32,000 nucleotides of DNA, taken from positions 1,440,001 through 1,472,000 of the forward strand of contig OY776328.1 of the NCBI GenBank assembly GCA_963675515.1, in the 5' to 3' direction. The notes beneath the pieces are model-generated. The model searched no databases. It worked only from the letters and a program-made list of their open reading frames with translations, and was not told where the DNA came from. Origin of the DNA: Coprobacillaceae bacterium. GTDB lineage: Bacteria > Bacillota_I > Bacilli_A > Erysipelotrichales > Coprobacillaceae. Both the position numbers and the translations under genes were made by a program. Shown here one piece after another: positions 3,823-24,439 of the stretch; positions within the stretch are counted from its first letter, which is position 1; each line of letters begins with the position of its first letter.

Positions 3823-4170
3823 ATGGCAGGTAAGACAACAACATACAACTACAAAAAAAGAAACCAAAACCGGCCCAAAGGCCATGGCGGCCTGGAGAAG
3901 TTCGGTTTCAAAAGTTCACTGATAATCGTATTGACGGCGGCCCTTTCCAGTCTGGTCATTCCCTATGCCTTGTCCAATCTGGGGATATCAGCCAAGGCGG
4001 TAACCGTCATCGCCAATGCCTTGATGATTTCGCTGGCTGTTTGCTATGTCCAGTATTTCGTAGAAACCAACCGTGGTTTCCGGTTAAACATAGTCAAGGT
4101 TTATTTGGGATTGTTTTTCACAATTGGAGTTATTAGTTATTTCTGGATGTACGTGGGATTATATATCTAA
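3823..4170 (+). CDS. small integral membrane protein, function unknown
   Basis: ATG at 3823 sits 6 nt after AAGGAG. The product is 115 aa with a basic N-terminus followed by about 3 hydrophobic helices. The track ORF start at 3751 overlaps anmK and lacks an RBS. Confidence 0.6.
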   Translation: MAGKTTTYNYKKRNQNRPKGHGGLEKFGFKSSLIIVLTAALSSLVIPYALSNLGISAKAVTVIANALMISLAVCYVQYFVETNRGFRLNIVKVYLGLFFTIGVISYFWMYVGLYI

Positions 4171-8144: not shown

Positions 8145-8397
8145 TCAAAGCCTTGATCGGGTGATGGTGAATGTGGTTCCTTTTTCAATCTCGCTTGCAA
8201 TCGCAATTGTACCCTGGCGGGCGGTGATGGTTGACTTTACGATGGCCGGACCCAAGCCCGATCCGCCGCTGTTGCGGTTTGCCGACTTGCCGGTGCGATA
8301 GAACCGCTCTAAGATGAAGGGGAGTTCATCCTTGGCGATCCCGATGCCGTTGGCAAGCGGGTTGACTATGACCTGGGTGATTAGCTGACTTTCACCG
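8145..8397 (-). pseudogene. sensor histidine kinase remnant (C-terminal HATPase_c only, internally deleted)
   Basis: Minus-strand frame reads ..ESQLITQVIVNPLANGIGIAKDELPFILERFYRTGKSANRNSGGSGLGPAIVKSTITARQGTIAIASEIEKGTTFTITRSRL*. An N-box-like motif is fused directly to the G1/G2 boxes. There is no start codon, HisKA domain or sensor part. Confidence 0.7.
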
Positions 8398-8503
8398 CGG
8401 TGATGCCCGGCCTGGTCTCAAGAGCCCGGGCGATTGTCCTGGCGCAGCTTTTACAGGTCATTCCGGTTATTTTCATCCTGATATCAATGTGAGAATTATC
8501 CAT
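8381..8503 (-). pseudogene. truncated heavy-metal-associated (HMA, CopZ/CopA N-terminal type) domain ORF
   Basis: AGGAGG, 6 nt, then ATG at 8503 (minus strand). The 40 codons read MDNSHIDIRMKITGMTCKSCARTIARALETRPGITAVKVS*. It carries the GMTCxxC metal-binding motif but stops after the second strand and abuts the kinase remnant. Confidence 0.6.
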
Positions 8504-8722
8504 AAGTTGCCTCCTGTGACCTGTCTTACAATTTCCGCTATGATAACAGGCAATTGTGGAGAATTCATGGAGACACGTAAACGAGCTCGATATTGCCAAA
8601 ATAAGCGCACGACGAGGCTCAAATCCCATAATGTTACACATATGAGAAGTAATAAACCTTTATTGTTGTAAGCGTATATCATAATTGTTGACATAAGAGC
8701 GACTATCTAGTATGATTAAACA

Positions 8723-8951
8723 AGTTAGAACATCTCTACCACATACCATTCTGATTCCCTTTTAGATGTAATGATATACTCCTGTTCTAACTTGCATTCG
8801 GGGCTTTCTTGATAATCCTTCTTTTTGGTAAGCTAAGCTGTTCGCCCCGGATGTATCCCCGGTGGATTTTTTCTCGACATGCCACGGGAATACAACTGCA
8901 TATTTGATCAAGCGCAGGCAATTGGGCTTACCTGGGCTTGATTTTTATTTT
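8723..8951 (+). ncRNA. candidate structured small RNA or orphan leader, copy 2
   Basis: Promoter TTGACA (8688-8693), 17 nt spacer, TATGAT (8711-8716). Helix gttagaaca (8724-8732) / tgttctaac (8783-8791). Helix gcattcgggg (8794-8803) / ccccggatgt (8845-8854). Terminator atcaagc-g-cagg / cctg-g-gcttgat plus tttttatttt (8907-8951). No CDS follows. Confidence 0.4.
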
Positions 8952-9941: not shown

Positions 9942-10463
9942 ATGGAAAACAACAAAATGGAACAGAAAGAATTCGAAGAGAGAATGGCAAGAACCCGGGA
10001 AATGGTGGTCAATATGACCAATGAGGCGGCAGCCAATGTCGAACAGCTCAATGGCCTGATCGAATCGGATCATTTCATGAATATGGAAGCCAACGAAGTA
10101 GCCGGTACGGCGGTGATCATGGAGTTCATCGTAAGGCTGCAAAACAAGATGTTATGGAATATCGAGAATATGGACCTGACCTCAAAGCTGATTCTTAAAG
10201 AAGCGATGGAAGAGATCGCCATCGAAGGAGTCATCGGCGGGGAAATGCGCGATACTATTTCACGACTCAACAACCTGCAGCTGCTTATCAAAGCGACCCT
10301 TGATGACGGGGAGGGTTACCGCAAGAAAATCAACGTGGCCATCGGAGCTTTGGAAGAGGCTTTCGACGAGCTCAAGGAAGAAATCATCGAAAAGGGTGAA
10401 CAGGATCCCGGGTCTCAGGAAATCAATTCACTGATCCGGATGATGACCCATTCCAACTGGTAA
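9942..10463 (+). CDS. family-B acidic helical protein (copy B0), function unknown
   Basis: 173 aa with RBS aggagaag. It is alignable by eye with 15233..15709 and 16196..16651: NMTNEAAANVEQLNGLIESDHFMNMEANEV versus DLAKKAAINGTDLFKMIDDDYLDSLEVDEI. A strong terminator follows. Confidence 0.7.
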   Translation: MENNKMEQKEFEERMARTREMVVNMTNEAAANVEQLNGLIESDHFMNMEANEVAGTAVIMEFIVRLQNKMLWNIENMDLTSKLILKEAMEEIAIEGVIGGEMRDTISRLNNLQLLIKATLDDGEGYRKKINVAIGALEEAFDELKEEIIEKGEQDPGSQEINSLIRMMTHSNW

Positions 10464-10468
10464 TCGGG

Positions 10469-10503
10469 TAACTGGCTCCAAACAAGGAGTCAGTTATTTT
10501 TTT
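10469..10503 (+). terminator. rho-independent terminator after B0
   Basis: 10-bp stem aactggctcc (10469-10478) / ggagtcagtt (10485-10494), loop aaacaa, then a T8 run. Confidence 0.75.
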
Positions 10504-10641
10504 GTGCCCGCACATATGGTGAAATTTCCCAAGGACAAGCACATCCGCAAATTAAACGGTGCTGGTTATTGGCGACACATCGTGGTATCCTTTCACTATG
10601 AACTATGGATAAGAAAACCAGGTCAATGGAAGGATAAAAAA

Positions 10642-12036
10642 ATGCCAAAAAAACCGCGATTGAGTTTCGATATGGAAAAAGAGCTGGATCAGCTGACCGC
10701 AGGCCAGCTCAAAGAATTCGTGAAGCTGGTCTGCACTAGTGAGCCGCGAATCAAAGAACTTTTAAGGGACTTTGTGACAGTCAAGCCGGCGCAACTCGTA
10801 CTTGATGATTACCGGCACAAGTACCAGAGCATAATCATCAACGCCCTGGACGATGATGACCGGCTTGACTGGTATCAAGCCGAGACCTTGCATAAGGAGC
10901 TGCTTGACTTCATTTCCTTTGATGTGACGGGCCTGGTGGCCCAGGGAAAATACGACGATGTTTTCGAACTGACGCTGGGTCTGCTTCTCGAGCTCTATGA
11001 ACTAGGTGAGGACTATGATGAACTTGATCCCGGAGTCATCCTCGAGCGCTGCTCGAAGATATGGAAAAGGGCAATCGGGAAGCTGAATCCGCTCCAGAAG
11101 CACAAGGTTCTTGAAAGCATCATGAAGAGTCTGGTTAATTGCCATTACTACAACACCGGGGATTTCCAAGCCGGTCTCAAGGACCTGCTTATCAGCCGTT
11201 TCAAGGATAAAAAGTTCCACGGCAAGCTCAGGGATTTTTTCAAAGCGGAACTTATGGCGGCACAGCAAAAGGATGGCAACCAGGTAAGTCGCCATCAGTT
11301 GCAGGCCCTGGATTACCTGCGCCTGCTTGAAGCGATATCCAAAGATGACAAAGAGATTGGTGATTTCATCGCCAGGTACTGGCATTGTTTCACCATCAGG
11401 GAGCATGTTGCCAATCAGGCTTTAGCCAACAAGGATTATGACAGAGCGGCTTTGATTTTGGAAGCCAACCTGAAAGAAGGCGGCCTGACCAGACGGCAGA
11501 TAGATGATCAGGTAACGGCTTTGAAGGAGATCTATCTAAAAACAGGCAATGTCAAGGACTTGCTTGGTCTTTTGGAGCGAATCGTGGTCGAATACACGCC
11601 CGGTAATCTCGAAGCCTACCGGGAACTCAAGGGTCACTTTACTCCAAGCGAGTGGGAGAAAAAAAGCCGGTCGATCATAGCCCGGCTGCCCAAATTAGCC
11701 AATATTGCCAGGATCTTCAGGGAAGATGAGCGCTACGATGATCTTATGGCCTATGTGATCAAGAAGGACGGTCTAAATGATCTGATCAAATACGAGGCCA
11801 TCCTCGGTCCCCTTTACCCCAACCAGGTCGTGGCCAAGTATGTCCAGGAGATAACCAGGCAGGTGGCTAATGCCAAAAGCCGCAATCAGTACAAGGATCT
11901 TGCCAAGCTGCTTGGACGACTGGGAAAATATGATAAAGGCAAAGCAGAGGCAAGCAAAATCATCGCTTCATGGCAGGAAACATACAGCTTTAAACCGGCT
12001 CTGATGGAAGAAATCGCAAAGGTAAAGATCGACTGA
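10642..12036 (+). CDS. alpha-helical repeat protein (protein C), function unknown
   Basis: ATG at 10642 follows ggaagga with a 7-nt spacer. The product is 464 aa, all-helical by composition, with TPR-like segments (ANQALANKDYDRAALILEANL). I saw no catalytic motif. The track start at 10504 (GTG) has no RBS. Confidence 0.7.
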   Translation: MPKKPRLSFDMEKELDQLTAGQLKEFVKLVCTSEPRIKELLRDFVTVKPAQLVLDDYRHKYQSIIINALDDDDRLDWYQAETLHKELLDFISFDVTGLVAQGKYDDVFELTLGLLLELYELGEDYDELDPGVILERCSKIWKRAIGKLNPLQKHKVLESIMKSLVNCHYYNTGDFQAGLKDLLISRFKDKKFHGKLRDFFKAELMAAQQKDGNQVSRHQLQALDYLRLLEAISKDDKEIGDFIARYWHCFTIREHVANQALANKDYDRAALILEANLKEGGLTRRQIDDQVTALKEIYLKTGNVKDLLGLLERIVVEYTPGNLEAYRELKGHFTPSEWEKKSRSIIARLPKLANIARIFREDERYDDLMAYVIKKDGLNDLIKYEAILGPLYPNQVVAKYVQEITRQVANAKSRNQYKDLAKLLGRLGKYDKGKAEASKIIASWQETYSFKPALMEEIAKVKID

Positions 12037-12206
12037 TGCCTTTAAGAACCCAACCGAAGATCGCGTCACAGGATGAATGTTCGAAAAAGCCGGAAGCATC
12101 GACCTTATTGGCACCAATTGAAGAGTTCAAGCAGGTTTCGGTAAGATTTGGCGACATCTGCCATTGGCGGTTATCCCGGTTAACATCCAATAATATTGAT
12201 TAATGA

Positions 12207-12233
12207 GTCCACCTTATAGCGGTGGGCTTTTTT
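12207..12233 (+). terminator. rho-independent terminator
   Basis: Stem gtccacc (12207-12213) / ggtgggc (12221-12227), a 7-nt loop, then tttttt. Confidence 0.6.
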
Positions 12234-13642
12234 AACGGGTGCAAGATGGTGCGGTCTAAAAAAATGAGGAAGCGAACAACCATTAATTCATCCGAAGTCA
12301 ATGATATCAAACAATCAGCAAACCGATCAACCGGGTTTCAAGGAGGGTAATCAGGGATAATCCAAATCCGGATTGGCTGGTGTAATCAGCCGGGTCGCAA
12401 CACTCAGGTGGCTATACTCCTGAAACATCCCGGCTTTTGATTCAAGCGTAAGTTGGGATGGTGGAAGAACCTGTTCAATCCGGGCGGGGCTCTTTTTCTT
12501 GGCGCTGATGATCGGATGGTGAATAATCGAGAAGCAAGGGAGCGGACAGTGTGATATGAGCTGATTTGGGATTGCAATAACAGCTCATATTTCCATTCTA
12601 AGAGCGGTTTGAGAAAGTTGGGTATATCGATATCCGTATAACGCTAAAGCGGCGTGAAGACCATGTGATGATGATTTGGGTGCTATCAAGCGTTCAGGTA
12701 TTCATGGAACGCCACAAGAACTCCACTTTCACCAAGTGGCATTCAAGGTCTGGTGAAAACAGGATGACGCATTACTGAATTATTCGCGCCGGATGCAAAC
12801 CGAGTATCAGTGCTGGTTTCGCAATTTTGGTTACTGGATTCAAGGTTGATGTCCAGGAAAAGTCTGGGAATTATTCCAATGAGCATTAAATTACTTTCTA
12901 ATTTTGAAACGTTTAGTGAGATCCTTGACATTGGTGGTGGACTCACGTACAATTTATCCCTGTTAGGGCAACCGTCCCGAGTCCCCAATAGGAAATTTGT
13001 AATAATAAATCCAGGTTGTTCTAGCGCCAGTCAGAAAAGCAACTGATAAACATTGCTCAATAGTTTTATGTGTTAGTTGCTTTTCTGGCTGATTCCCCAA
13101 ATCAATGGCCACAAGCAGCTTTTTCTTTGCGGTCATTATCATAACGGATAAAATCAAGGTGAAGTAATTTGGTTTTTAAATTACGCTCCTTGATTTTTTA
13201 ATAGCGTCTCCATAAGGAGAAAACGAGTTGATTGGCGAATTGGCGTTTTTTAAGACGGAATCTGAAAATTCGCAGGAGGCGAACTTTTTAAGAATGTCGT
13301 CATGGTCGATGTTAGTGTGTCTTGATATTTCCAGACTGATGGAAGCGAAGAAAAGGCGATGAAAAATAATGGGACTGGAAACTGGATGGCCCCAGGGGAT
13401 TCCGTAAGCGGCAGTGGCGCTGAAAGCTTTGCGCGAATGTTTTTCTGGCTTGGCTAGCCTATCCGATGATTTCAACTGGCTGGCAATCAAAATAGAAAAG
13501 GGTGCGATTTTCAGCTGAACTTGATTGTGGCCACACACCAGGAAGTTCCTGCCCGCAAATCAAAACGGCGCTATCATGCCTTAAGGCTTAAAGATCCACC
13601 GGTTGATAAATGCTTCAGAATTCCAAATAAGAGGAGATGACA

Positions 13643-14917
13643 ATGACAATCCACATAGTAGACCCAATCGAATCGCTAGACTTTCCCAAAACTGTTACCA
13701 ATGCCCTGGTAAGATTTGGGATCCTCACTGTTGGTGACCTGCTTGGGCATCGCCGGGATGAGATTTGGGAAATCAAGGATTTCGGGCCGCTTGGCAAGGA
13801 AAGCGTCAATTCCTTCCTGCGCCGGATAGTTGAAAAGCAAATTGTCATTGTCGACCTGGGTGATATGAGCAACTATAATGCGCTAATGGAAATGGCTCCA
13901 AGGACTTTCTTTCATATCGACGGGCTTTACTACCGCGATGTATTTGTAAGAAATTTGGGTCTTGGTCCGATTGTCACCAACAGTCTTAAGAATGAAGGAT
14001 ACCTGTGGCTTTCACAGATTATCCATCTGGATCAAAGCGATCTGGCAGGACTGCCAAACATGGGAAAAAAAACAGTCAAGGATGCCTTGGAGGCCATCGG
14101 GCGGATAGTCCTGGTGCTCGATGTCTTGGCCCATGAAAACTTCACCATAACGCCTGAGTTGATCGCGAACAAGTTCCGGCTGGAATTTAATGAAACAATG
14201 GATATCGACCTGGTTGAACACTTTCAGGCGATGATTGGTTTTTATCGGGAGTTGTTTGATGAATTTGGCTTAGATCACGACTACCTAAATGACCTGACAA
14301 TCCGGGAGCGGCTGCGCCAAGAGAGCTATGTAAGATTAAAATACCAGGAGTTCTTGTTTGATTCCATCCGGAATTCCGGTTACGGTCTTGATCTGGATAT
14401 GATCATCGAGAAGACCCCGGAAGTCTTGCGCGGTGTGAACTATATCCGGGAAAATGTCCAAGTCCTGCACAACAGCAAGAAGATAAGGTACCTTGACGGC
14501 CGGACAATGGTTCAAAACGGTCCGTCATTCATCACGGGAGCCAAAAGACATTTGAGTGAATTGCAGTATGCCATCCTGATGAAGTATGTCGAAGGCAGTT
14601 CGATTGAGGCCATTGCCAGTGATCAGGCTCATTCCTGGAAGTGGGCTGTGGAGCATATCGAAGCGCTTTTTAAAAGCATCAAAGACGCTGATCTGAATTT
14701 CGCTGAGGATGTTTACCTGGAGCTTATGCTTAACTACGATATCTCCTATAAGCAGTTCGCCAAGGTTGTGGCCGATCCAAGGATCTACCGCTACCTTGAC
14801 CTGAATTGCCGCTATGGTGCAAACAAATATAAAAATAACCGCTTGCCCCTGGAGAAGATCAGAGAGGACAATGAAATGCCACAATATTACAAAGGACTGT
14901 TCAGTCCGTTTTTATAA
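13643..14917 (+). CDS. family-A protein (copy A1): two RpoA alpha-CTD-like HhH modules plus a sigma-70 region-4-like HTH
   Basis: GAGGAG (13631-13636) sits 6 nt before ATG 13643; the track ATG at 13637 has zero spacing. IESLDFPKTVTNALVRFGILTVGDLLGHRRDEIWEIKDFGPLGKESVNSFL aligns with B. subtilis-type alpha-CTD ([32 protein letters not shown]). The second module is LGLGPIVTNSLKNEGYLWLSQI..LPNMGKKTVKDALEAI. The C-terminal part LSELQYAILMKYVEGSSIEAIAS..HIEALFKSI resembles sigma region 4.2. Confidence 0.8.
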   Translation: MTIHIVDPIESLDFPKTVTNALVRFGILTVGDLLGHRRDEIWEIKDFGPLGKESVNSFLRRIVEKQIVIVDLGDMSNYNALMEMAPRTFFHIDGLYYRDVFVRNLGLGPIVTNSLKNEGYLWLSQIIHLDQSDLAGLPNMGKKTVKDALEAIGRIVLVLDVLAHENFTITPELIANKFRLEFNETMDIDLVEHFQAMIGFYRELFDEFGLDHDYLNDLTIRERLRQESYVRLKYQEFLFDSIRNSGYGLDLDMIIEKTPEVLRGVNYIRENVQVLHNSKKIRYLDGRTMVQNGPSFITGAKRHLSELQYAILMKYVEGSSIEAIASDQAHSWKWAVEHIEALFKSIKDADLNFAEDVYLELMLNYDISYKQFAKVVADPRIYRYLDLNCRYGANKYKNNRLPLEKIREDNEMPQYYKGLFSPFL

Positions 14918-15232
14918 CAAGTGGATGAACGCCAAATGGTGCTTATTAGTTGCTGGTAACCGGTTATGTGGTGGTCCTGGTCGTAGTCGCAAAAGTAAAA
15001 ATTTCGCTCTGACACTAAACCGGTAAAGATCCAGACTGAAATGGATCCGGTCCTGGAATTGTGAAGAGCAAATACCTTCAAATCTGAACATCTTGGGATT
15101 GTTCAAGGGGTTATGGGGTAATGGAAGTACAATAAACAAGAAGGCAGAAATGATGGCTTTTGTGCCGGTAGTGCTTGCCATTGAAATATGTTGTATAGAA
15201 GTATTATATTAAGAGATGAGAGGAAAAGAAAA

Positions 15233-15709
15233 ATGAAACAAACGAAAATAAAGCGAAATAATGTTGAATTTACAGTAGGAGAAGCCAAGGCTGCAGTCAA
15301 TGACCTAGCAAAAAAAGCCGCCATTAACGGTACGGATTTATTCAAAATGATCGATGATGATTATCTTGATAGTCTTGAAGTTGATGAGATACTATCTGCA
15401 GGATTCTTACTGACTTCTATCGTTGAAAGCCAGGATCAGATGTTTGATAGCATCAAAGAAAAGTGTGTCATGCCACCTGAAGCTAATGAGGAACCTGAGA
15501 ATTTTTCAATGCAAGTAAAAGAAGTGATAATGGATAAATTGCTGGAAATCATAAGCGACTTGGAGATATTTCAATCGGCCCTGGTCGATCATCTCGATAA
15601 CGATGATGGTGTAAGTGCAATCCTGGAAAATTCGACCAAACCATTGCATCAAGTCATCAACTATCTCAAGGAACATGAAGGCGTGGTTGATACAAAAGGG
15701 GTAAGCTAG
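15233..15709 (+). CDS. family-B acidic helical protein (copy B1)
   Basis: ATG at 15233 lies 9 nt after gagagga. The product is 158 aa and a clear paralogue of 16196..16651: AAINGTDLFKMIDDDYLDSL versus AAINSVDFNAMIDDGYLDSL. Confidence 0.75.
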   Translation: MKQTKIKRNNVEFTVGEAKAAVNDLAKKAAINGTDLFKMIDDDYLDSLEVDEILSAGFLLTSIVESQDQMFDSIKEKCVMPPEANEEPENFSMQVKEVIMDKLLEIISDLEIFQSALVDHLDNDDGVSAILENSTKPLHQVINYLKEHEGVVDTKGVS

Positions 15710-16061
15710 AGAAGTCAGACAATCCAATGTGCTTTTGGTATGCAAAGCATTTATTTGCATCGCATTTTCACATCCCGGGATGTAATTGGGATTGTGGTAA
15801 GAGTAAATGGGCACTTGCTTTTACTGCGGTAATTACAAAAACTTCCTGTAGTGTCTAGCTGACGTGGATAATTGGAACAGAAACATTTCTTGGGGTGCTT
15901 ACAAAATCGGCGCTGTCTTCAAGTGCTAGAGATGGTTCTAAATGGCCACTACAAGTTGAGTCTTGTTGAACTTATGAAACAGCGGAATAATTTCCAATCA
16001 ATCAGCTATATGGTCCAGGATTGTCACATCGACATTCCAAGATCATGTTCACTCTCTTGAG

Positions 16062-16090
16062 TTGAGAATGGAGTGTTAATTATTTATAGT
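16062..16090 (+). promoter_or_regulatory. sigma-A-type promoter duplicated from the vanZ-like gene promoter
   Basis: TTGAGA (16062-16067), 17 nt spacer, TATAGT (16085-16090). It is homologous in sequence and spacing to TTGACA-17-TAAAGT at 25318-25346. Confidence 0.5.
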
Positions 16091-16122
16091 TTATATAACG
16101 AATTTGGGGTGGGGGAAAACTT

Positions 16123-16185
16123 ATGGTTGTTTTGGAAGTTGTAGCTTTTATAATCAGGGATATCGGCTTGTCAATGAGAAACTGA
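16123..16185 (+). pseudogene. 5' remnant of a vanZ-like paralogue (20 codons then stop)
   Basis: The 21-nt string atggttgttttggaagttgta is identical to 25379-25399. The remnant MVVLEVVAFIIRDIGLSMRN* compares with MVVLEVVFVIFKEIALSLFS in the full gene. Confidence 0.7.
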
Positions 16186-16195
16186 AAGGAAAAGG

Positions 16196-16651
16196 ATGAA
16201 ACAAATGAAATATGAAAATGATGGAATCAAGAAGCAAATAGCGGACTTGGCAAGACAAGCTGCAATCAACAGTGTGGATTTTAACGCGATGATAGATGAT
16301 GGTTATCTTGATTCCTTATCAAAAGAAGACGCGCAAGCGACCCTGGCCTTCATGACCTTCATCGTGGATAACCATGAAAGGATGATGGTATCTGTCGATG
16401 ATTCTCGCAAATTGGCCCCGGAGGCTCCGGCTGATCCCAAGAAACTGGAAAAAATGGTTAAGGCGGCGATGATGGCGAAGATCGATGGCGCGATCGATGA
16501 ACTGATGGAAATTCAGGCGGCTTTGAGGGATCGCCTGGAAAGAAATGACATCATCAATGCCATGATTGAAGAATCAATCGAGCCGCTGATCGAGGCCATC
16601 ACCCTGCTTGGTGAAAGAGAAACTTTTGCAACTGGAAGGGAAGTTCACTGA
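16196..16651 (+). CDS. family-B acidic helical protein (copy B2)
   Basis: 151 aa and a paralogue of B1 along its whole length. RBS-like aaaggaaaagg. An alternative ATG lies at 16205. Confidence 0.75.
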   Translation: MKQMKYENDGIKKQIADLARQAAINSVDFNAMIDDGYLDSLSKEDAQATLAFMTFIVDNHERMMVSVDDSRKLAPEAPADPKKLEKMVKAAMMAKIDGAIDELMEIQAALRDRLERNDIINAMIEESIEPLIEAITLLGERETFATGREVH

Positions 16652-17135
16652 TTTCCGGGGCCTTTGATTGTCGTTTTTTCGATGATAATCCAAATTGGCC
16701 AGAAGGACGCTATGGTCTAAGGATGAAGTCCAGACAAGGCGGATCTGGATAAGATAGTGGATGAGGATGATTTCGAGGCGGTGGAAGATCAAATGCGGTA
16801 TTCTAGCGTTGACCCCGTTCTTTTCCGGGTGGATATCCCGGACTGGATCTTTGACTGGTAATGCAAATCTGACATGGATATGGATAAGGCAGACCGCGAC
16901 CTAACAATAGCACCCACGACTTAAACCGAATCATCAGGCTGGAGTTGGTCCTGGAGGTAAAATGGGGTGATCTAATTCGGGTATCTTAGATGTGGCGAGT
17001 AAAGTTTAGGCGATTCAGGTGAAGATGTTGGATTATTAGTCATCAAATTTGAAGGTCAGACATAATTAATATTAATGAATAGACGATGGATGTTCTTTAT
17101 TGGTGAGGCAAAATATTTGCTTTTAAAGATCCGTT

Positions 17136-18092
17136 GTGAAGACGCCGATTAAGCGGCGTGAGAGGACAAAGAAATTGGAACTTAAAAAAGAATACGGGCT
17201 TGAGTGTCTACCTTTGCCGATCAGTACAAAGTGTCAATTGGATTATTCGGGAATCGTCAATGTGGGCGACTTCATCAATAGTGATATTGATGAAATCATC
17301 AATTCGGGACTGCATGATGAGCAAGGTGTAGAGTATATTATAAGATGCCGCCAGCAAATGGCTAACGGAGAAATAAAAATACTTGGCCACTATCTTCATC
17401 GGGATTTTGAGGCTGGAGCTGATATGGGAGGCAAGTATTTCCGCCACAAAGATGGTTTGCGCTATCAAGACAAGGCGCTAAAAGAAATAATCGACGACGA
17501 GCATGACTTGAAAGAGTTGAAAGATTCCGGATTTTCATTACTTTCCCAATTGATCGGTTTTAAAACGAGTGATTATAAAGCATCGACCAAGCTGGAAGCA
17601 AAAAACAGAGCAAAAGTGATGAAGATGATCGCCAAAGTGGATCTCGTTCCAGCAACAACGCCCGACCCGGTCGAATCGTCAATGGGGGAAAGACTTTTCT
17701 ACAAGATATGGAACTGTCTTAATGAACTGGTAGGAGTGGAACTGGTAAACCATTACAAAGAGACAATCGATCTTTACGACGATTACATTGCAAACAACGG
17801 AGATGATTATAACCTGCTTGAATGCTATAATGACAAGAAACTGGGAAGTTACCTATTCAAGGAGAGATGCTTCCAGGAAATTATGCAAAGGTATATGTTT
17901 AAACTTCTCAAATCACACCAGTACGGATTGTCATTTGAAGAGATATCAGCCATGGTTCCGGTACTTTTCCAAGATTCGAGTGAATTAGGCGGATACATGA
18001 ATACGCTGATAGATCAACAGTTGATATCGCAGTTGATTCCAGGTCACTTTGTAGCTGGTGCACCGGATTTGATAAGTGGAATTTCTCGCCTG
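17136..18092 (+). pseudogene. family-A gene copy A2, N-terminal 319 codons, interrupted by an IS6-family insertion
   Basis: It aligns with A1, sharing the alpha-CTD-like modules, the YFRHKDGLRYQD versus FFHIDGLYYRD segment, and QYGLSFEEISAMVPVLF versus GYGLDLDMIIEKTPEVL. The frame runs into the IS inverted repeat and stops at 18125. The start is uncertain: GTG 17136, or TTG 17175 which lies 8 nt after gagagga. Confidence 0.8.
18085..18092. repeat. 8-bp target-site duplication (left copy) of the IS6-family element
   Basis: ctcgcctg at 18085-18092 is identical to 24072-24079 and lies immediately outside the IRs. Confidence 0.85.
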
Positions 18093-18130
18093 GGTAGTGT
18101 CAAATTCGTTATGGAAAAACAGTGATTTTT

Positions 18131-18391
18131 TCATAATAGAGTTTCGTGTTCGTTTTGTCGGTAATACCTAAGCGCTTCTTCCATGAGGATGTTCCACTTG
18201 TTTGGCATGTTATGAGTTTTCTTCAAACAATCCAATTCAACTGGTGGCTTGTATCCCAGGGAGGTGTGATTTCTTAGGAAATTGAAATATGTTGTGAACA
18301 GACACATGAAATCATTTGCGCCATCCAATGAGTTGAAGCCATTTTTGATCGCGTAGGTTTCTCCAAATGTTCTATTCAAACGCTCTATTAT
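18131..18391 (-). pseudogene. IS6-family transposase, C-terminal 86 codons (separated by the nested insertion)
   Basis: Reads IIERLNRTFGETY...FNFLRNHTSLGYKPPVE, which contains the catalytic E region. It joins in frame to 22693..23883 once the nested IS and one TTAT copy are removed. Confidence 0.8.
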
Positions 18392-18419
18392 CCGTAGTTC
18401 CCGGGTAGAGTTTCTAACC
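18392..18419. repeat. left terminal inverted repeat of the IS1634-like element
   Basis: See the element entry. The inner end carries the TTCTAACC motif. That motif is repeated in the internal palindrome gtggttagaagatattctaaccac (18517-18540), just downstream of an extended -10 (tgtggtataat). Confidence 0.75.
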
Positions 18420-18555
18420 ACTCTGCCTTTGCATTAGCCTGAATACGCGGAAACCCTTATATTTACTTGATTTTTTGACTTACGAACACTTCCTTTTTAT
18501 GCCAAATGTGGTATAATGTGGTTAGAAGATATTCTAACCACGAAGGGAGAAAACC

Positions 18556-19207
18556 ATGTTTATCGCTTATGATATCAAAAACGGAATTGAATATGGCAAG
18601 GTTTGCACCTCGATCCGTGAGGGAAAGAAAGTCAAGAAAACGTATACCAATCTAGGACGCGTTCTTGATAAAGAACGCGGAATCTTTCAGAACCGATCAC
18701 TTGGTGTGTTCACCTATTCCGTTGAAAACGGGTATGGCAAATCACCTGTGGATTTTGTACCCGATTCAAACGGAGACAGAGGAAAGATGAAACTTATCCT
18801 GGACTTCGGAGACAGCTTCTTCATCGATGAATATCTAAAACAAACAGGCTTGGACAAAGTAGTGGATGAGATCGGATACGGAAATCCGGATACCCTTAAA
18901 GCGATGCTTTCCTACTACATATTATGCAGCATGGCTAACTGCAACGCTATCGACTGGTTCGAAGGCAACTATGCGAGGATCCTGTATCCAAAGGCAAACC
19001 TTACCAGCCAGCGGATCAGTGATTTTCTTACCGCTATCGGGGATGAATATTCAGAGCGTGAATTCTTCAAGGCGTATTTGGAATTCCTGTTCAGTAAAGA
19101 CAACACGATCAAGGAAACCGGGATACTGATCGACAGTACCGGATTACCTAACGATATCCACTTTCCTCTGACTGCTATCAGTAACCATAACGGTCAGATA
19201 AGCAATG
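18556..19207 (+). CDS. IS1634-family DDE transposase, exon 1 (upstream of the group II intron)
   Basis: RBS gaagggag. The N-terminus MFIAYDIKNGIEYGKVCTSIREGKKVKKTYTNLGRV is typical of IS1634 transposases. The first catalytic D is in GILIDSTG. The frame is broken exactly where GTGCG begins at 19208. Confidence 0.8.
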
Positions 19208-21801
19208 GTGCGAAACGTTTCCCTATAAATGCCTAGGCATGAAATGGGAGGATTTTCCAATTGGAAAATCACAACTGAATATTCAACACTTGGAATGATG
19301 GCTGTCATGTTAGCCTGAAACAAGTAGTCTGATACTCCTACACGCATGAGGTTATAACAGTAAAATCATGTGTGAAGCTAGGTGAAGTCGGCTGAACGAT
19401 ACCTAAGTGATATTTCATATGGTAAAGGATAGGCCGGGACGCTATAAATTATCTATGGTGAGAATGTCCGTGTAAGGACTGACGAAACTGCGAATGTACG
19501 GGTCTAGAATATCGTGCTATTGAAAGATAGTATGTTGCGTGCGCAACGATGAATATCGAAAAGTAAGAGTCATTGCTATGAAATTCGAGATACTCAACGA
19601 TGAGGGTATAATTCATCAGGCTCATAGTAGTAACCTAAGGATAAATGTAAAGCTAGAATATTTGGAACGTTGTAAGCGAGAAACGTCTATCAAACGACTG
19701 TTATCGGGACGGTAACTATAAGTGGAAACGAAATGTTTTTATTCTCGTGAAAGTAGGGGCACAGTACCGATGAAGCCACGAAAAATGGTGGAGGGATAGC
19801 CCCAAGTCTGGTTCTTTAAAAATCAGTTACAGTTAAATGAAGCTCACAGGGTCTGGTAAGATGATGGGAAACAATTGTTCTAAATGAAAGGAATAATCCA
19901 TCGGTGAGCACGGAATTACGAAACAACGAATATTACAGTATGCAGGAAACTTTTGACTGGTTGTATCAAATGAGTTTAAACAATGATACTTACGGGATAG
20001 ATCTTTATGATCTGGTCATATCCAGGAATAATATACTTCTCGCCTATCGAAACATCAAAAGCAATACCGGAAGCCACACAAAAGGCACTGACGGCCTTAC
20101 TATTGATGATTACAAGATAGAAAATGTTGAGAGATTTATTCAGGATATTAGACTATCGCTATTGGACTATAAGCCAAAGACGGTAAGAAGAGTAGAAATA
20201 CCCAAACCTAATGGGAAATTACGACCATTGGGAATACCGACGATGCATGACAGACTGATTCAACAGATGTTCAAACAGATACTTGAACCAATCTGCGAAG
20301 CGAAGTTTCATAAGTATTCATACGGTTTTAGAGCCAATCGCTCAACCCATAATGCTTTGTCAAGATGTTGCCATATCGCCAATATGACGCACAATCACTA
20401 TGTTGTTGATTTGGATATCGAATCGTTCTTTGACAATGTCAATCATACCAAGTTAATCAAACAACTTTGGAATATCGGCATCAAGGACAATCAGGTACTG
20501 ACGATTATAAGTAAAATGCTGAAAGCTCCCATAAAAGGAGTAGGTGTCCCACACTGTGGGACACCACAGGGCAGGAGTGCTTTCGCCATTACTTTCAAAC
20601 GTAGTGTTGAACGATCTGGACTGGTGGATAAGCAACCAATGGGAAACATTCAATGCGAATTACAAATATCCCTCAAATAAGTATAGTGCACTCAAGAAAA
20701 CCAATCTAAAAGAAATGTATGCGGTAAGGTATGCCGATGACGCGCGGATTTACACTTGCAGTTATAAAAATGCGGTAAGGATATATCATGCGGTCAAGGA
20801 ATATCTGAAGAAAGAACTTAAACTTAATGTTTCACCTGAAAAGTCAAAGATTACCAATCTAAGGAAACGTAGGTCGGACTATTTGGGGTTTGAAATGAAG
20901 CTGGTACCAAAGCGCAAGAAGTACGTTGCGAATACCTTTGTATCAGCGAAAAGTAAAAGAAAAATCAAAGCGGAAATAAGGAAAAGAGTTAAAGAGATAC
21001 AGCGTCAAACAATTTCCAAGAATATCCACAATTATAATTCATATATACTTGGGATAAGAAATTATTTTGAAGCTGCAACACATGTAAATATAGATTTTAG
21101 AAATGTTTACCATCAGACGCTCAAGACCTTATACAACCGATTGAAACCAATAGCCAAATATGAAGTACCCAGGAGTCCCCCACCGTTGTATAGGAAGTTG
21201 TTTAAGAATAACTATCGCACATTCACAATTGGAGCTATTTCATTGTTTCCGCTAGTCGATACGCAGTGGAAATTAAAAATGAACTTCAATCAGAACATAT
21301 GCAACTATACCCAAGAGGGGCGCAAATTAGTTTATAAACGATTAGAAAACAATGTAACCTCAGTTATGAAGAGGTTGTTGGAACTGCCAATTGAAGATGG
21401 AAGCGTGGAGTACCGGGATAACACAATCTCAAAGTATTCAATGCAAAAAGGGCGTTGTGGAATCACCCAATTGTTTCTAACGGCCGAGGAAATACACTGT
21501 CATCACATTGTTCCCATTGCAGATGGTGGAACCGATAATTTTGATAACCTAATCATTATTCACAAAGAAGTACATAAACTAATACACGGTAATAATCAGG
21601 AAACTGATAAAACGCTATTGAAAAAGTTCAATCTAAACCAAACACAGCTTAAAAAGATGAACATGTTGCGTAAGAGATGTAATTTAACTGAAATTAATTA
21701 AAAGAAGAATTAGATGGAACGCCGTGTGCGGTGAAAGTCGCATGCACGGTGTGGAGCGGGGGAAAAGATGGAGATAACATCAAAATCTTACCTATCGTTA
21801 T
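19208..21801 (+). mobile_element. bacterial group II intron (about 2.6 kb) with RT/maturase/HNH ORF in domain IV
   Basis: The 5' end is GTGCG (19208-19212). A domain V-like 34-mer gccgtgtgcggtgaaagtcgcatgcacggt lies around 21719-21752. The 3' end reads ..cgttat (AY) at 21801. Removing it joins the two transposase exons in frame (652+854 nt = 501 codons plus a stop codon) to give ..GQISNEVRLIYVTQQDTGMPIYF. Confidence 0.85.
19904..21701 (+). pseudogene. group II intron-encoded RT/maturase/HNH endonuclease, disrupted by a +1 frameshift near 20573
   Basis: RT motifs include RPLGIPTMHDRLIQQ and YADD (RYADDARIY). The C-terminal HNH part is HHIVPIADGGTDNFDNLIIIHKEVHKLIH. The conserved GTPQGGVLSPLLSN block is split: frame 1 reads GTPQGRSAF and frame 2 reads AGVLSPLLSN, with an extra nt in ggc-a-gga. 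Confidence 0.8.
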
Positions 21802-22655
21802 AGGTAAGGCTGATCTATGTGACCCAGCAGGATACCGGAATGCCGATATACTTCCGGTATTGTCCAGGCAACGTCATCGATACGCCTACATTGGTCAGAA
21901 CCATAGCTGAGTTGAAGGAAAGTGGCGTCAACACTAAATTTGCCATTCTTGATGCCGGATACTATTCGGATGGTAATCTCCTGCACTTATATGAGAACAA
22001 GATATCATTCGTCACAAGACTCAAGGAAAACCTGAAGCTGTACAAGCAGCTGGTAAATAACCATCTCGATGGTATCCAGGATAAAGAGAATTTCGTAAGC
22101 TATAACACCCGTTATGCCTATATCAAACGGGTTGAGTGCGAACTTGTTGAAGGGTATACCGGATATGCCTACATCGGTCTTGACCTTGATCGGAAATCGA
22201 GCGAAAGCCATAAGTTGTTCCAGAAGGCAAAAGATCAAAAACTCAGTGATGAAGACGTTTACGAGAAGATGAAAAACAAAGGAATATTCATTTTGGTCTC
22301 ATCGAGGCGCATAGCGAAGGATAAAATTTTACCGCTTTACTATACCCGGCAACAGGTAGAACAGATTTTCGACATCAGCAAGAACTACGCTGATCTATTG
22401 CCGTTGCGGGTACAAAATGAGGATACCTTCAGAGGTCATCTATTATTGACGTTCATCGCAACTGTGTTTTGTAAGATGGTTCAGGACAAGCTGAAGGGGA
22501 CCAAAATGAATCCTCAATCCTTGTTCCTGAACTTGCGAAACCAAAAATGCAAAGTATATGATAATGCCGTAATCACCCAAGAAGCTTTCAAGAAGGCGAA
22601 TGATTGCTACAAAACATTCGGTATTGAATGCCCGGTCAGAATACCGAGAACCTGA
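21802..22655 (+). CDS. IS1634-family DDE transposase, exon 2
   Basis: Continues as (E)VRLIYVTQQDTGMPIYFRYCPGNVIDTPTL...AILDAGYYSDGN, which holds the second catalytic D. It ends 6 nt before the right IR. Confidence 0.8.
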
Positions 22656-22660
22656 TTTGT

Positions 22661-22688
22661 GGTTAGAAAAGCCACCCGGGAACTAAGG
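22661..22688. repeat. right terminal inverted repeat of the IS1634-like element
   Basis: It is the reverse complement of 18392-18419 with 4 mismatches. Confidence 0.75.
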
Positions 22689-22692
22689 TTAT

Positions 22693-23883
22693 TTGTTTGG
22701 CAGGGCGATGTTCTTTTGATACAGGATCATCATTCGTAAGTCCAATTACTTGAGTCACTTTAAAAAATACTCTTTTGATTTGAAAATACTGTTGAGCGGC
22801 TTTATATATCGGATTTCCGTCAACAACGATCTCAAAGTCAGTCGGTAACTTTTTGAATTTTCTCATGACTGAATAAAAGGCATTTATAGCCGCAAAGGTA
22901 TCTCTTTTCATGAAAATTCGATACGAAGTTATTATTTTTTTCCTAACATCGCACATGAAAAATACATAGGCTTTTTTTCCTAAAACTTTGACGTATGTTT
23001 CGTCTCCGCAATGATACGAGTTCAAATCGTGCTTGTAGTTATCCATCCACGGAAATAGGAGATGGCTGGCTGCCTGAGCGTAGTTAGCTATTGTTTGATG
23101 GGATATTTTGATATCGTGAATCTCGTATAAAACCAAAGCGGTTTTTCTAAGAGACAGGCCATAATTAACGTAATACGTCAACGCTAGGCCTAAAACATGC
23201 TTAGAATTGTGGATTCTGGAGAGATCAACTTTTGATGGTGCTATTTTCAGCTGGATGCTTTCAAGTTTTTCGATTGAAGCATCGAAGACGCGGGTTATGT
23301 AGTGAAGCGAGAATTTAGAAGGATTTACCTTGTATTTCTTTTTATCTTCTTTTGTTAGTTTCTTCAACTCACTCTTATAGTGAGAACATCTAGAGTTTTG
23401 ACATTTATAGACATCAAAACCATCACGTGATTTGATCAACGTCAACTTGCGGCCGCAGTGAGGACACTTGCGGATCAATTGTTGCGAATAACTCTTATTA
23501 AGTGAGAAAGTCGTATCACAAACTTTGCACTTAACTTGGGATTTCTTGATTCCGTTGTTGAAAGTCAGGTATTCATGAGTGGCGCCGCAATGTGGGCAAA
23601 CAGTATCTTCAGATGGATAGTCTTTGCCTTCATGTCTAAACACCGGTTTCAAAGGTCGTTTATGTTTGGATTCATACTCATCCCTGGCCTGTTGAAATGG
23701 GATGGGGATTAATTGCGGTTCAATAACAGGAAGCGGATGCATTTTGAAACGACGATATGGTTCACTCTTACTTGAATCCGTACCATCACTGGGAAGATGC
23801 TTTAGCAGGAAACACTCAAATTTGTACAAAAATCTACGAATGATATTTAAAAAATTGATTATTAATGATATAATTTTGACCAT
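22693..23883 (-). pseudogene. IS6-family transposase, N-terminal 397 codons (two zinc-ribbon motifs plus first part of the DDE domain)
   Basis: CPHCG..CKVCD and CPHCG..CQNSRC motifs are present. HCGDETYVKVLGKKAYVF is the IS6 hallmark DETY(V/I)K, and VVDGNPIY holds the second D. The track ORF (22663..23883) ends inside the IR of the inserted element. Confidence 0.8.
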
Positions 23884-24071
23884 GGTAACAGTCCTCCTTA
23901 TTGTGGTTTAGACACTTACAATTATGAGGCTGTTACCTTTTTTTGTAAACAAAATGGTCAAATTATAGGGTGAAATCCGGGGGAATTCACCTAAATATAT
24001 AAAAAACCAAGGTAGAATGCGGTTTTCCAGTTAATTATGGTTGTAAATAACTAACTGGTTTTGACACTACC

Positions 24072-24079
24072 CTCGCCTG
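24072..24079. repeat. 8-bp target-site duplication (right copy) of the IS6-family element
   Basis: ctcgcctg, identical to 18085-18092. Confidence 0.85.
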
Positions 24080-24439
24080 TTGAACGAATCGGAAATGGAA
24101 GCGTTCATGCTCCGTCTTGAAAATATTGAAGTTAGAGACATTGCCGCCAAGTTGAATGTGAGCAAGTCACGCATCCACTACCTGCTAAGAAGGAGTTTCA
24201 ATAAAATCAAAGACAGTCAACCTGTTTTGATGATAGATGCATACATTGATATATTAAATAGATATGAGTTGTCTAAAGAAAAGTGGGAAGAAATCCTTGG
24301 TGGCGAACTTAATTATAACTACATGGAGTTGCGGCTTAAGTATGGAGGTTTTTATTACAGGTACGGTTATCCGATAAGTGAAATATCCCGCGCTTATTGG
24401 ATTCCAGAACCAATCAGGCAACATTTAATGAATTCTTAA
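24080..24439 (+). pseudogene. family-A gene copy A2, C-terminal 119 codons (sigma region-4-like HTH part)
   Basis: The first codon follows the TSD in the same frame as 17136..18092. LNESEMEAFMLRLENIEVRDIAAKLNVSKSRIHYLLRRSFNKIKD aligns with A1 LSELQYAILMKYVEGSSIEAIAS...ALFKSIKD. The downstream segment LNYNYMELRLKYGG aligns with RIYRYLDLNCRYGA. Confidence 0.8.

Follow-up and report, generated by a model that had tools for sequence, protein, structure and literature searches.

Locally duplicated genes for promoter-recognition-type and small acidic helical proteins 5' of a polysaccharide operon

Introduction

In sigma/anti-sigma pairs, region 4 of sigma-70 is bound by Rsd or by phage T4 AsiA. In Bacteroides, paralogous UpxY/UpxZ pairs head capsular polysaccharide operons with a long leader; UpxY is a NusG-like antiterminator and the UpxZ-type partner is a small protein of ~150 aa. 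The locus described here resembles the first of these systems in that a protein with a sigma region-4-type helix-turn-helix (HTH) is encoded beside a small all-helical acidic protein. It was analysed in a window (the whole stretch of DNA under study) of 32,000 nt, starting from an original prediction of six plus-strand genes in the order B0, C, A1, B1, B2, A2.

Results

Cluster layout and flanking genes

All six predicted ORFs were confirmed in this order and their coordinates matched:

9942–10463, plus strand: B0, acidic helical protein of 173 aa (pI 4.5), a distant B paralogue
10466–10499, plus strand: intrinsic-terminator-like hairpin (14-bp stem and T-run) that closes the B0 unit
10642–12036, plus strand: C, 464 aa, with weak helical-repeat-type matches
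13643–14917, plus strand: A1, 424 aa, matching Pfam RNA_pol_A_CTD twice (E=4e-15)
15233–15709, plus strand: B1, acidic helical protein of 158 aa, 34% identical to B2
16196–16651, plus strand: B2, acidic protein of 151 aa, a four-helix bundle in the AF2 model
17136–18092, plus strand: N-terminal 319 codons of A2, 76% aa identity to the orthologue A2' in the related contig L001, no Pfam match
24080–24439, plus strand: C-terminal 119 codons of A2 with a sigma-r4-like HTH, 78% aa identity to A2'

The neighbouring gene content agreed with the predicted position between a core sugar operon and an EPS locus. The left flank was a MurNAc utilisation operon (RpiR, SIS etherase-like, AnmK, PTS EIIC, MupG and BadF-type kinase) and the right flank was VanZ followed by a Bac_transf-led EPS locus. 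No enzyme, toxin or defence domain was found in any cluster member, and the predicted lack of enzyme motifs held in that no member had an enzyme-type Pfam or NCBIfam match. Searches of NCBIfam, PADLOC and PHROGs likewise gave no named system, and the original prediction had assigned none. IS elements and gene fragments accumulated across the region, and the following additional features were located:

3–305: putative B-like fragment at the extreme left end of the window, away from the EPS locus (E=8e-4)
8381–8641: HMA-domain fragment, an example of the gene fragments of the region
16080–16172, plus strand: 93-nt duplicate (direct repeat D1) covering the promoter and 5' end of VanZ, 77% identical to 25336–25428
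18093–24079, no strand assigned: nested mobile-element insertion within A2
~24530–24850, plus strand: remains of the winged-helix/HTH region of a third A paralogue, containing stop codons and weakly matched by the A profile in a six-frame search (E=0.009)

The VanZ-promoter copy directly precedes B2 and marks a local rearrangement.

A proteins

The original prediction had seen a union of two promoter-recognition folds in A, and this was upheld by Pfam, Foldseek and a PDB profile search, which identified alpha-CTD-like and sigma region-4-like modules. The N-terminal part of A1 comprised two alpha-CTD-like domains (~residues 8–65 and ~100–158) followed by a helical linker, and the C-terminal part a winged helix (~residues 246–296), a degenerate sigma-r4-like HTH (~residues 298–351) and a helical tail. 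The AF2 model of A1 (pLDDT 65) matched alpha-CTD chains in Foldseek at an rmsd of 1.1–1.6 A over 55–59 residues and winged-helix proteins weakly, at low confidence, while the PDB chains matched by the A family profile were the RpoA alpha-CTD and SigA region 4. The start at ATG 13643 had better Shine-Dalgarno spacing than ATG 13637 and agreed with database entry P0001 (424 aa). A1 shared 56% identity with its orthologue P0002 (dN/dS 0.27) and 23% with the N-terminal piece of A2 (297 aa aligned, E=5e-18); once both A2 pieces were joined, A1 and A2 aligned almost gap-free from end to end, as predicted.

The DNA-contact residues of the alpha-CTD-like domains were largely eroded. In the '265 determinant' of A1, R265, K298 and S299 were replaced by T, L and G in domain 1, and R265 by I in domain 2. 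DNA-contact residues were gone from both alpha-CTD-like domains of A2', and in A2 both domains were degenerate and below Pfam detection. In the r4-like HTH of the window A proteins, the recognition helix also departed from the family consensus. Pfam and NCBIfam searches found neither sigma region 2 nor 3 in A, which rules A out as a sigma factor.

The two A2 pieces belong to one gene that an IS6-type element has recently interrupted. Its intact 434-aa orthologue A2' lies at 8079–9383 of L001, and the A2 reading frame was restored across the target-site duplication. The outer IS6-family element carried perfect inverted repeats, GGTAGTGTCAAA (18093–18104) and TTTGACACTACC (24060–24071), flanked by an 8-bp target duplication CTCGCCTG (18085–18092 and 24072–24079). 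This element was interrupted by a second IS, itself interrupted by a group II intron (19270–21801). The perfect repeats, the target duplication and the intactness of both A2 halves indicate that the insertion is recent. The C-terminal piece matched Sigma70_r4 and r4_2 of Pfam weakly (E ~6e-5, below gathering score). An alternative A2 start is possible at 17175.

By alignment, A is a short, truncated branch of a ~900-aa family that is widespread and uncharacterised. A (~420 aa) aligned to the N-terminal half of that family (two alpha-CTD, helical linker, winged helix, sigma region 4 and tail), and 67 of the best 150 matches in the profile search were full-length over this module. The window A proteins lacked the ~480-aa C-terminal half, of which no remnant was found in the window. 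They were also degenerate where the long forms retained TRERVRQIE and the equivalents of R265, N268, G296, K298 and S299. RefSeq gives some relatives on Enterococcus plasmids (e.g. WP_002362439.1) the name 'sigma factor-like helix-turn-helix DNA-binding protein'; the plasmid protein aligned to A only from the winged-helix region onward, with no alpha-CTD match. In both long-form loci checked, a ParB-like gene came next after the A relative, joined there in the plasmid locus by an SNF2 helicase, and neither a B partner nor an adjoining polysaccharide locus was present. One short-form A adjoined an integrase. No paper on the function of the ~900-aa family was found.

B and C proteins

The B copies are mutual paralogues as originally proposed, BLASTP giving 34% identity for B1/B2 (E=5e-25), 22.5% over 151 aa for B0/B1 (E=1e-6) and E=1e-4 for B0/B2. 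Their description as small acidic helical proteins also stood, with pI values of 4.2–4.9 and a B2 model (pLDDT 66) of four helices at residues 2–34, 43–72, 81–113 and 118–138. A PDB fold search with this model gave no informative match (best E 1.1), and no sequence or fold similarity of B to known anti-sigma or regulator families was detected in Pfam, NCBIfam or PDB. B0 orthologues in L001 and L003 showed 63% aa identity (dN/dS 0.26–0.31) and the B2 orthologue in L001 showed 44% (dN/dS 0.14). B1 and B0 shared a ribosome-binding site/start motif (repeat D3).

For C, Pfam gave HEAT/TPR-type matches only, all sub-threshold, and PDB and plasmid searches gave no relatives. L001 carried a 61-aa C remnant (49% identity) at a different position, and no match was detected in L003 or L004. 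C, which had been counted as a module member, is not conserved with the module and is probably a passenger.

Conserved non-coding blocks

Two non-coding blocks were conserved in L001 and L003:

8632–8861, plus strand: block 1, 81–85% nt identity with L001 and L003
12806–13199, plus strand: block 2, 80–85% nt identity with L001 and L003

Block 1 lies ~1 kb 5' of B0 and exceeded B0 in nt identity (71–72% for B0). It contained a sigma-A-type promoter (TTGACA 8689–8694, 17-nt spacer, TATGAT 8712–8717) and, downstream, a structured RNA comprising two long hairpins and a T-run. RNAalifold showed four pairs with compensatory changes, from three sequences only, and an Rfam search with the block gave no match. 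Block 1 probably belongs to the A/B module. Block 2 precedes an A gene in three genomes and contained the top promoter match of the region (11/12; TTGACA 12925–12930, 17-nt spacer, TACAAT 12948–12953), a 17-bp stem (13028–13044/13075–13091, inverted repeat I9) and a terminator-like hairpin with a T-run at its end (13155–13199); Rfam gave no credible family. The interval between C and A1, originally taken for ~1.4 kb of decayed DNA, was in fact 1.6 kb long and contained this 390-nt block of promoter and structured RNA, which was better conserved than the genes.

A-B pairing and polysaccharide-operon context

The repeated A-B neighbourhood was recovered outside the window. A B-like gene lay directly 3' of a short-form A in three of the four other metagenomic contigs (L001, L004 and L007), so the absence of a conserved neighbourhood, which would have spoken against the original prediction, was not observed. 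The B-profile match had E=1e-22 in L007 and E=2e-7 in L004 (hhalign E=4e-5); L003 carried at this position only an acidic ORF of similar size that the B profile did not detect. The A of L004 was only ~25% identical to A1, which shows that the adjacency survives deep divergence, and the A-B order was retained there despite different upstream genes and a different first polysaccharide gene. The A and B ORFs (~425 and ~150 aa) were open across several species at 25–76% aa identity; between species at 43–76% aa identity the ORFs were intact, and the dN/dS of cluster genes (0.14–0.31) was well below neutral. Judged by these measures, the A and B genes are maintained. Their rate of change is far above that of the adjacent EPS gene (dN 0.13–0.44 vs 0.07), with local duplication and with copy number and gene order varying between relatives. 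A set of 1.8 billion representative proteins yielded only about five contigs for the A-with-B clade, so few that both the adjacency and the EPS context may be synteny by descent. Overall, the A-B pair is real, rare and undescribed.

The polysaccharide-operon context of the pairs had been overlooked in the first reading. At each of the four loci for which flanks were available, the A/B genes were co-directional with and immediately 5' of a polysaccharide operon, which opened with a Bac_transf gene at three of them and with a CapD-like gene in L004. The operon promoter region was also conserved:

26022–26133, plus strand: conserved polysaccharide-operon promoter region, 74% identical across 111 nt to its counterpart in the very divergent L004

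This promoter (−35 TTGACT 26104–26109, TG-extended −10 TAATAT 26127–26132, ~80 nt conserved upstream) was common to the window, L001, L003 and L004. In 80 related EPS loci A, B and the conserved promoter were all absent, hence EPS loci generally do not need them.

Discussion

The preferred reading, held tentatively at a probability of about 0.4, is that the cluster consists of lineage-specific, locally duplicated regulator/antagonist gene pairs acting on transcription, possibly that of the EPS operon. A would bind promoter DNA and/or RNA polymerase via its HTH and winged helix, and its alpha-CTD-like domains may be protein-docking surfaces, since most of their DNA-contact residues are lost in these copies. 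B may bind A and block it like a small anti-sigma-type antagonist, an idea drawn from the analogy with sigma/anti-sigma pairs. The most likely target would be the conserved EPS-operon promoter just downstream and co-directional (26022–26133), a candidate for A/B control, and the two promoter/leader-RNA blocks within the cluster may be further targets. On this reading C would be a passenger and A2 recently inactivated by its IS. In its favour are the domain make-up of A, the full-length paralogy of A1 and A2, the A-B adjacency across deep divergence, the maintenance of the genes and the shared polysaccharide-operon setting. The disrupted A2, the third A remnant and the variable gene order count against regulator pairs and fit a decaying island. 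Also unfavourable are the tiny clade, the 80 related EPS loci lacking A, B and the promoter, the eroded alpha-CTD residues and diverged r4-like recognition helix, the long forms with neither B nor a polysaccharide locus beside them, and the dissimilarity of B to known anti-sigma or regulator families.

Decay as the whole explanation is nevertheless unlikely. A would then be a functionless truncated ~900-aa mobile-element gene, B and C fast-drifting orphan ORFs, and the gene order inherited synteny in a narrow lineage. The missing C-terminal half of the short A forms, the eroded functional motifs, the IS-split A2, the remnants of the third A and of C in L001 and the fragments throughout the region, such as the HMA-domain one, all agree with this account, but the A and B ORFs stay open across several species at low dN/dS, the A2 insertion is recent with both halves intact, and L004 keeps the A-B order in changed surroundings. 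It is about equally doubtful that the pairs are autonomous regulators and antagonists with targets elsewhere in the genome, e.g. a non-EPS regulon, their EPS proximity being a mere by-product of an insertion hot spot in this region. The DNA-binding-type domains of A, the possible B-like fragment far from the EPS locus and the gathering of IS elements and gene fragments are in keeping with such targets; against them, all four flanked loci, including the divergent L004, place the pair directly 5' of a polysaccharide operon with a conserved promoter.

Still less probable is a conflict module, in which A, as a mimic of the surfaces by which RNA polymerase recognises promoters, titrates or detects transcription factors belonging to phages or other mobile elements, with B as inhibitor or sensor; if true, the cluster would protect against mobile elements or control them. 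The rapid evolution of A and B relative to the EPS gene, their local duplication with variable copy number and order, the parent family on Enterococcus plasmids beside ParB-like and SNF2 genes and the short form by an integrase are points in its favour, as is the presence of sigma-r4 and alpha-CTD-like pieces in MzaA and PglW, both of them defence proteins, a likeness at the domain level only. However, PADLOC and PHROGs yielded no significant family for A, B or C, the cluster has no effector or enzyme, IMG/VR held no relatives and phage records no full-length ones, and the flanks are the sugar operon and the EPS locus, with no defence-island or prophage context found. The IS elements are inserted into the cluster and are not its targets. 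The defence or mobile-element-control role of the original prediction is thus unsupported, and the polysaccharide context speaks for ordinary regulation at the locus no less than for conflict.

Regulator/antagonist pairs at a polysaccharide operon can be set against three known systems. Both N-terminal domains of A1 share the helix-hairpin-helix fold and sequence signature of the RpoA alpha-CTD, whereas the '265 determinant', through which DNA is bound, has been eroded in A1 and lost in A2', and A lacks the alpha N-terminal assembly domain (Pfam, NCBIfam). Compared with sigma/anti-sigma pairs, A lacks sigma regions 2 and 3 and B lacks similarity to known anti-sigma families. UpxY/UpxZ show no homology to the pairs, A having no NGN or KOW domain (Pfam, NCBIfam), and they belong to Bacteroides, whereas the window organism is Firmicute-type (best EPS-gene match in an Erysipelotrichaceae MAG) with a single polysaccharide locus visible in the window. 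The likeness to UpxY/UpxZ lies in the arrangement: locus-associated paralogous pairs of a transcription-machinery-related factor and a ~150-aa partner, placed 5' of a long-leader polysaccharide operon.

Gene organization of the cluster

The six genes that the original prediction had placed on the plus strand were all present in the window, arranged as below.

Genes of the cluster (window positions, strand, feature)
9942-10463, plus, B0, 173 aa
10642-12036, plus, C, 464 aa
13643-14917, plus, A1, 424 aa
15233-15709, plus, B1, 158 aa
16196-16651, plus, B2, 151 aa
17136-18092 and 24080-24439, plus, A2, split by an insertion sequence (IS)

The ATG start codon of A1 at 13643 showed proper spacing to AGGAG at 13632-13636 and agreed with the 424-aa database entry P0001. 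The B copies were confirmed as paralogues, with 34% identity between B1 and B2 (E=5e-25) and a more distant relation of B0 to B1 (E=1e-6) and B2 (E=1e-4). The end-to-end alignment claimed for A1 and A2 was also recovered and was nearly gapless once both A2 pieces were joined; A1 and the N-terminal part of A2 shared 23% identity (E=5e-18). The flanks were as previously noted, with a sugar operon for MurNAc utilisation on the left and VanZ followed by a Bac_transf-led polysaccharide (EPS) locus on the right.

Several fragments were found around these genes. A 93-nt, 77% identical copy of the promoter and initial codons of VanZ (25336-25428) abutted the 5' side of B2 at 16080-16172 and is a rearrangement footprint; in the related contig L001 the B genes stand directly before VanZ. 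A remnant of a third A-family paralogue covering the winged-helix/HTH region, interrupted by stop codons and closest by eye to the type of database proteins P0007 and P0011, was located at 24530-24850. The C-terminal part of a possible extra B-like protein (B-profile E=8e-4) was found at 3-305, cut by the left window edge and upstream of the MurNAc operon. Finally, a fragment of a gene with a heavy-metal-associated (HMA) domain (Pfam E=5e-7) was present on the minus strand at 8381-8641, where few genes lie between the sugar operon and B0.

Domains of the A proteins

The prediction that A joins two RNA-polymerase promoter-recognition folds held in Pfam searches, with alpha-CTD-like domains in A1 and a sigma-region-4-like domain that is weak in A2. 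A1 matched RNA_pol_A_CTD twice (E=4e-15) and, marginally, an HTH. The alpha-CTD copies of A2 were not detected by Pfam, and its C-terminal part matched Sigma70_r4 at E=6e-5, under the cut-off. The A family profile matched region 4 chains of SigA/RpoD in the PDB with E values of about 1e-6 to 2e-7. The AF2 model of A1 (pLDDT 65) showed two alpha-CTD-like domains, a helical linker, a winged-helix-like unit and a further HTH, with a poorly modelled tail. Foldseek superposed the first domains of A1 on solved alpha-CTD chains with rmsd of 1.1-1.6 A and gave weak, low-confidence matches to winged-helix proteins. No Sigma70_r2 or Sigma70_r3 match was found in A1, A2 or their long-form relatives, in which region 4 alone was matched, and the NCBIfam rpoA models matched through their C-terminal 50-60 positions alone with scores far under the cut-off. 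The recognition helix of the region-4-like HTH has drifted in the A proteins of the window.

A family of longer proteins

Word-indexed searches with A1, the A alignment and the B alignment produced nothing from outside this locus family; for A they found just three relatives in 5.8 billion clusters. The wider family was reached by exhaustive HMMER profile search only, which yielded 650 representatives with E values up to 1e-3. The whole A module of about 420 aa was matched in 67 of the top 150 hits, and most of those 67 were about 900 aa long with the module as their N-terminal half (E down to 5e-54). A1 and A2 stop after the module and do not have the C-terminal half of about 480 aa; the alignment to the N-terminal half of the longer proteins therefore marks the A proteins of the window as short members of a larger family that is uncharacterised. 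The long forms had two strong alpha-CTD matches each and Sigma70_r4 matches of E=2e-11 to 3e-5, most of those tested above the gathering score, with the canonical motif TRERVRQIE. Their C-terminal half had no match in Pfam, NCBIfam or PDB, and an HMM built from 45 such halves had no match to B, to C or to any of the six reading frames of the window.

Relatives of 864 aa on Enterococcus plasmids, in which the alignment begins at the winged-helix region, had 'sigma factor-like helix-turn-helix DNA-binding protein' as their sole annotation. Two loci with long forms were as follows.

Loci with long-form relatives (locus, positions, gene order)
L002, Enterococcus faecalis plasmid pQZ076-2, 6197-11872, 864-aa sigma-region-4 protein, then ParB-like, then SNF2 helicase
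L005, metagenomic contig, 561-3955, alpha-CTD/sigma-region-4 protein of about 900 aa, then ParB-like gene

The ParB-like protein of L005, an unrelated contig, was 54% identical to the plasmid one, which showed a weak ddrB-ParB match and a DGNRR motif. The long form, ParB-like and SNF2 genes may form a conserved operon; none of them matched a specific PADLOC defence model. A literature search for the family name, accession and domain combination found no description of the family, and the polyvalent-protein paper that defines ddrB-ParB contained no mention of 'sigma' and, in the passages retrieved, described no such protein. Scans of GTDB representative genomes (the window's own genome is not among the representatives), JGI metagenomes and IMG/VR with the A alignment gave no match, exact look-ups of P0001 and C returned no record, and a cluster look-up yielded neither names nor accessions.

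B and C proteins

All B proteins were acidic (pI 4.2-4.9), and the B2 model was a four-helix bundle (pLDDT 66) for which Foldseek returned generic helical bundles only (best E 1.1). No significant family was found for B in Pfam, NCBIfam, PHROGs or PADLOC, and the latter three gave none for A or C either. In the PDB the B profile matched designed repeat (armadillo) and coiled-coil proteins only; this likeness was dismissed as helical or compositional similarity, most likely compositional.

C showed sub-threshold HEAT/TPR-type Pfam matches only, with no other relatives in the collections searched. It had been proposed as part of the module. In L001, C was reduced to a 61-aa remnant at a different position, and none was detected in the related contigs L003 and L004, so it was not counted as a member. 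C was also considered as the missing C-terminal half of the longer relatives, for which the lengths fit (426 + 464 aa), and was rejected together with B since neither BLASTP nor the HMM of the 45 halves showed similarity. Nor was C similar to the 427-aa gene that precedes the long form in Enterococcus.

Related loci and selection

Four further contigs carried a short-form A of this clade. Primes denote orthologues of the window genes.

Contigs with short-form A (gene order)
L001, B0', A2', C remnant, A1', B, B, B, VanZ, Bac_transf
L003, B0', A (split), 147-aa ORF, A, Bac_transf
L004, B fragments, A, B, CapD-like, with different upstream genes
L007, A, B, on a 2-kb contig

The claimed pairing of A with B was upheld by the B-profile HMM, which matched the genes that follow A in L007 (E=1e-22) and L004 (E=2e-7); the L004 gene was also matched by hhalign over its full length (E=4e-5). 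In L003, a 147-aa ORF separates the two A genes, and B-likeness could not be shown for it. The A protein of L004 was only about 25% identical to A1, which indicates that the A-then-B order was maintained over deep divergence. Orthologue pairs had dN/dS of 0.14-0.31, which indicates purifying selection on the A and B genes, and their protein sequences evolve several-fold faster than the neighbouring EPS gene (dN 0.13-0.44 vs 0.07). Two other short forms, P0026 and P0038, had a more canonical region 4 motif; P0026 adjoins an integrase, and neither contig showed a B-like ORF. Overall, both the domain claims and the A-B pairing were supported.

Polysaccharide operon and conserved non-coding blocks

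In each of the four loci with flanks (window, L001, L003 and L004), a polysaccharide operon follows immediately after the A/B genes and runs in the same direction. The four operons had a common promoter region, TTGACT, 17 nt and a TG-extended TAATAT (26104-26132 in the window), which the window and L004 share with 74% identity over 111 nt despite the first gene of L004 being CapD-like and not Bac_transf. The stretch at 26022-26553 comprised this promoter (TTGACT-17-TGgTAATAT) and a leader of about 450 nt. About 50 nt upstream of Bac_transf, the leader ends in a terminator-like hairpin at 26487-26553 (GGGATAG...CTATCCC and a T-run), which suggests antitermination control. A search of GTDB representatives for EPS loci of the Bac_transf type found neither A, B nor this promoter in any of the 80 best matches, led by an Erysipelotrichaceae MAG with 72% aa identity. 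This makes the association a narrow one that is confounded with phylogeny.

Two non-coding blocks were conserved more strongly than the surrounding genes.

Conserved non-coding blocks (positions in each contig)
Block 1, window 8632-8861, L001 4833-5067, L003 1517-1751, upstream of B0
Block 2, window 12806-13199, L001 7224-7614, L003 3961-4302, weak match in L004 6680-6732

In both blocks, a promoter close to the consensus precedes a strongly structured RNA and a hairpin that carries a T-run, and neither had a credible Rfam match. Block 1 was 81-85% identical across the three genomes, above the adjacent B0 gene. Its TTGACA-17-TATGAT promoter is conserved, a few compensatory changes occur in its two long hairpins, and it includes a T-run; it is a candidate small RNA or leader. 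Block 2, with a TTGACA-17-TACAAT promoter, a 17-bp stem and a terminator-like hairpin, precedes an A gene by 440-1400 nt in each genome and is a candidate leader or attenuator RNA.

Interruption of A2

A2 is one gene that was recently interrupted. An intact 434-aa orthologue was present in L001, and the element that breaks A2 in the window was of the IS6 type (DDE_Tnp_IS240 transposase), with perfect inverted repeats GGTAGTGTCAAA / TTTGACACTACC and an 8-bp target duplication CTCGCCTG on both sides.

Components of the insertion in A2 (window positions, feature)
18093-24079, three-level nested insertion of an IS6-family element containing a second IS containing a group II intron
22663-23883 and 18131-18421, minus, IS6-family transposase, split by the second IS
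18556-19236 and 21819-22655, second IS transposase, split by the group II intron
19270-19448 and 21717-21801, Rfam matches of the group II intron inside the second IS
19904-21701, intron RT/maturase ORF with a frameshift near 20544-20680

A comparison of A2 (17214-18092 and 24080-24439) with L001 gave a dS of about 0.55, with much higher values for A1, B0 and B2 (1.0-3.1). The A2 value was also below that of the EPS gene, for which the method saturates. The low dS may reflect a recent event of exchange or gene conversion in A2.

Functional interpretation

The A and B genes may be lineage-specific regulator and antagonist pairs acting on transcription, a reading to which we give a probability of about 0.4. 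A would act as the regulator and B would antagonise it by binding. The most likely targets would be the promoter of the downstream polysaccharide operon and, within the cluster, the promoter/leader blocks. The main null explanation is that the cluster is a decaying island, as the IS insertion in A2, the gene remnants and the eroded motifs would suggest; however, dN/dS was well under 1 and the ORFs are intact across species. The original prediction had put forward a regulator/anti-regulator or RNA polymerase decoy module, for instance for control of, or defence against, mobile elements. Fast evolution and local duplication of A/B and the plasmid-borne relatives of A are in line with a defence, decoy or anti-mobile-element role, but no significant PADLOC-DB v2 match was found for A1, B0, B1, B2 or C of the window, nor for A2' and two B-like ORFs of L001, and the cluster was without an effector, viral relatives or island context. 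The defence, decoy or anti-mobile-element reading was thus not supported and is a minority option.

A wider proposal, which we regard as improbable, is that the combination of two alpha-CTDs with sigma region 4 constitutes an undescribed class of 'promoter-recognition mimic'. The forms of about 900 aa, some plasmid-borne and next to ParB-like and SNF2 genes, would act on host or rival transcription, and short A with B would be a chromosomal derivative, with B as a new kind of antagonist perhaps recruited to switch a surface polysaccharide operon.

The window's own A and B copies are a rare, partly degenerate offshoot with a putative function. If they are a regulator and antagonist pair, they would represent a new way to build transcription control, from free-standing copies of the two RNA polymerase promoter-recognition modules, and a foothold on a sizeable family without known function. 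Their link to the conserved exopolysaccharide promoter points to a part in how gut Firmicutes express surface polysaccharides, which could be tested. Should the cluster instead be a decaying island, its value would be limited to a worked example of nested IS and intron insertion in a fast-evolving gene family.

Comparison with known systems

The A family has the region 4 HTH in common with sigma factors of the sigma-70 family, weakly in the copies of the window, whereas region 2, responsible for core binding and -10 recognition, is absent. A1 has the alpha-CTD fold of RpoA but not its N-terminal dimerisation/assembly domain. In E. coli RpoA, the 265 determinant that contacts DNA consists of R265, N268, C269, G296, K298 and S299; part of it was lost in A1 and nearly all in the A2 orthologue of L001, while it was largely retained in the long forms. 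The long forms differ in adjoining ParB-like (L002 and L005) and SNF2 (L002) genes, neither of which was among the ORFs of the window. B had no sequence or fold similarity to known anti-sigma factors in Pfam, NCBIfam, PHROGs, PADLOC, the PDB profile search or Foldseek. Regulators of the UpxY/UpxZ type are located at the 5' end of polysaccharide operons on the same strand, as are A/B in the window, L001, L003 and L004, but their NusG-like (NGN/KOW) antiterminator component was absent from every cluster member. Overall, the A-B pair and its parent family are undescribed; the pair is built from known transcription-factor domains and follows the known logic of a regulator with a small partner.
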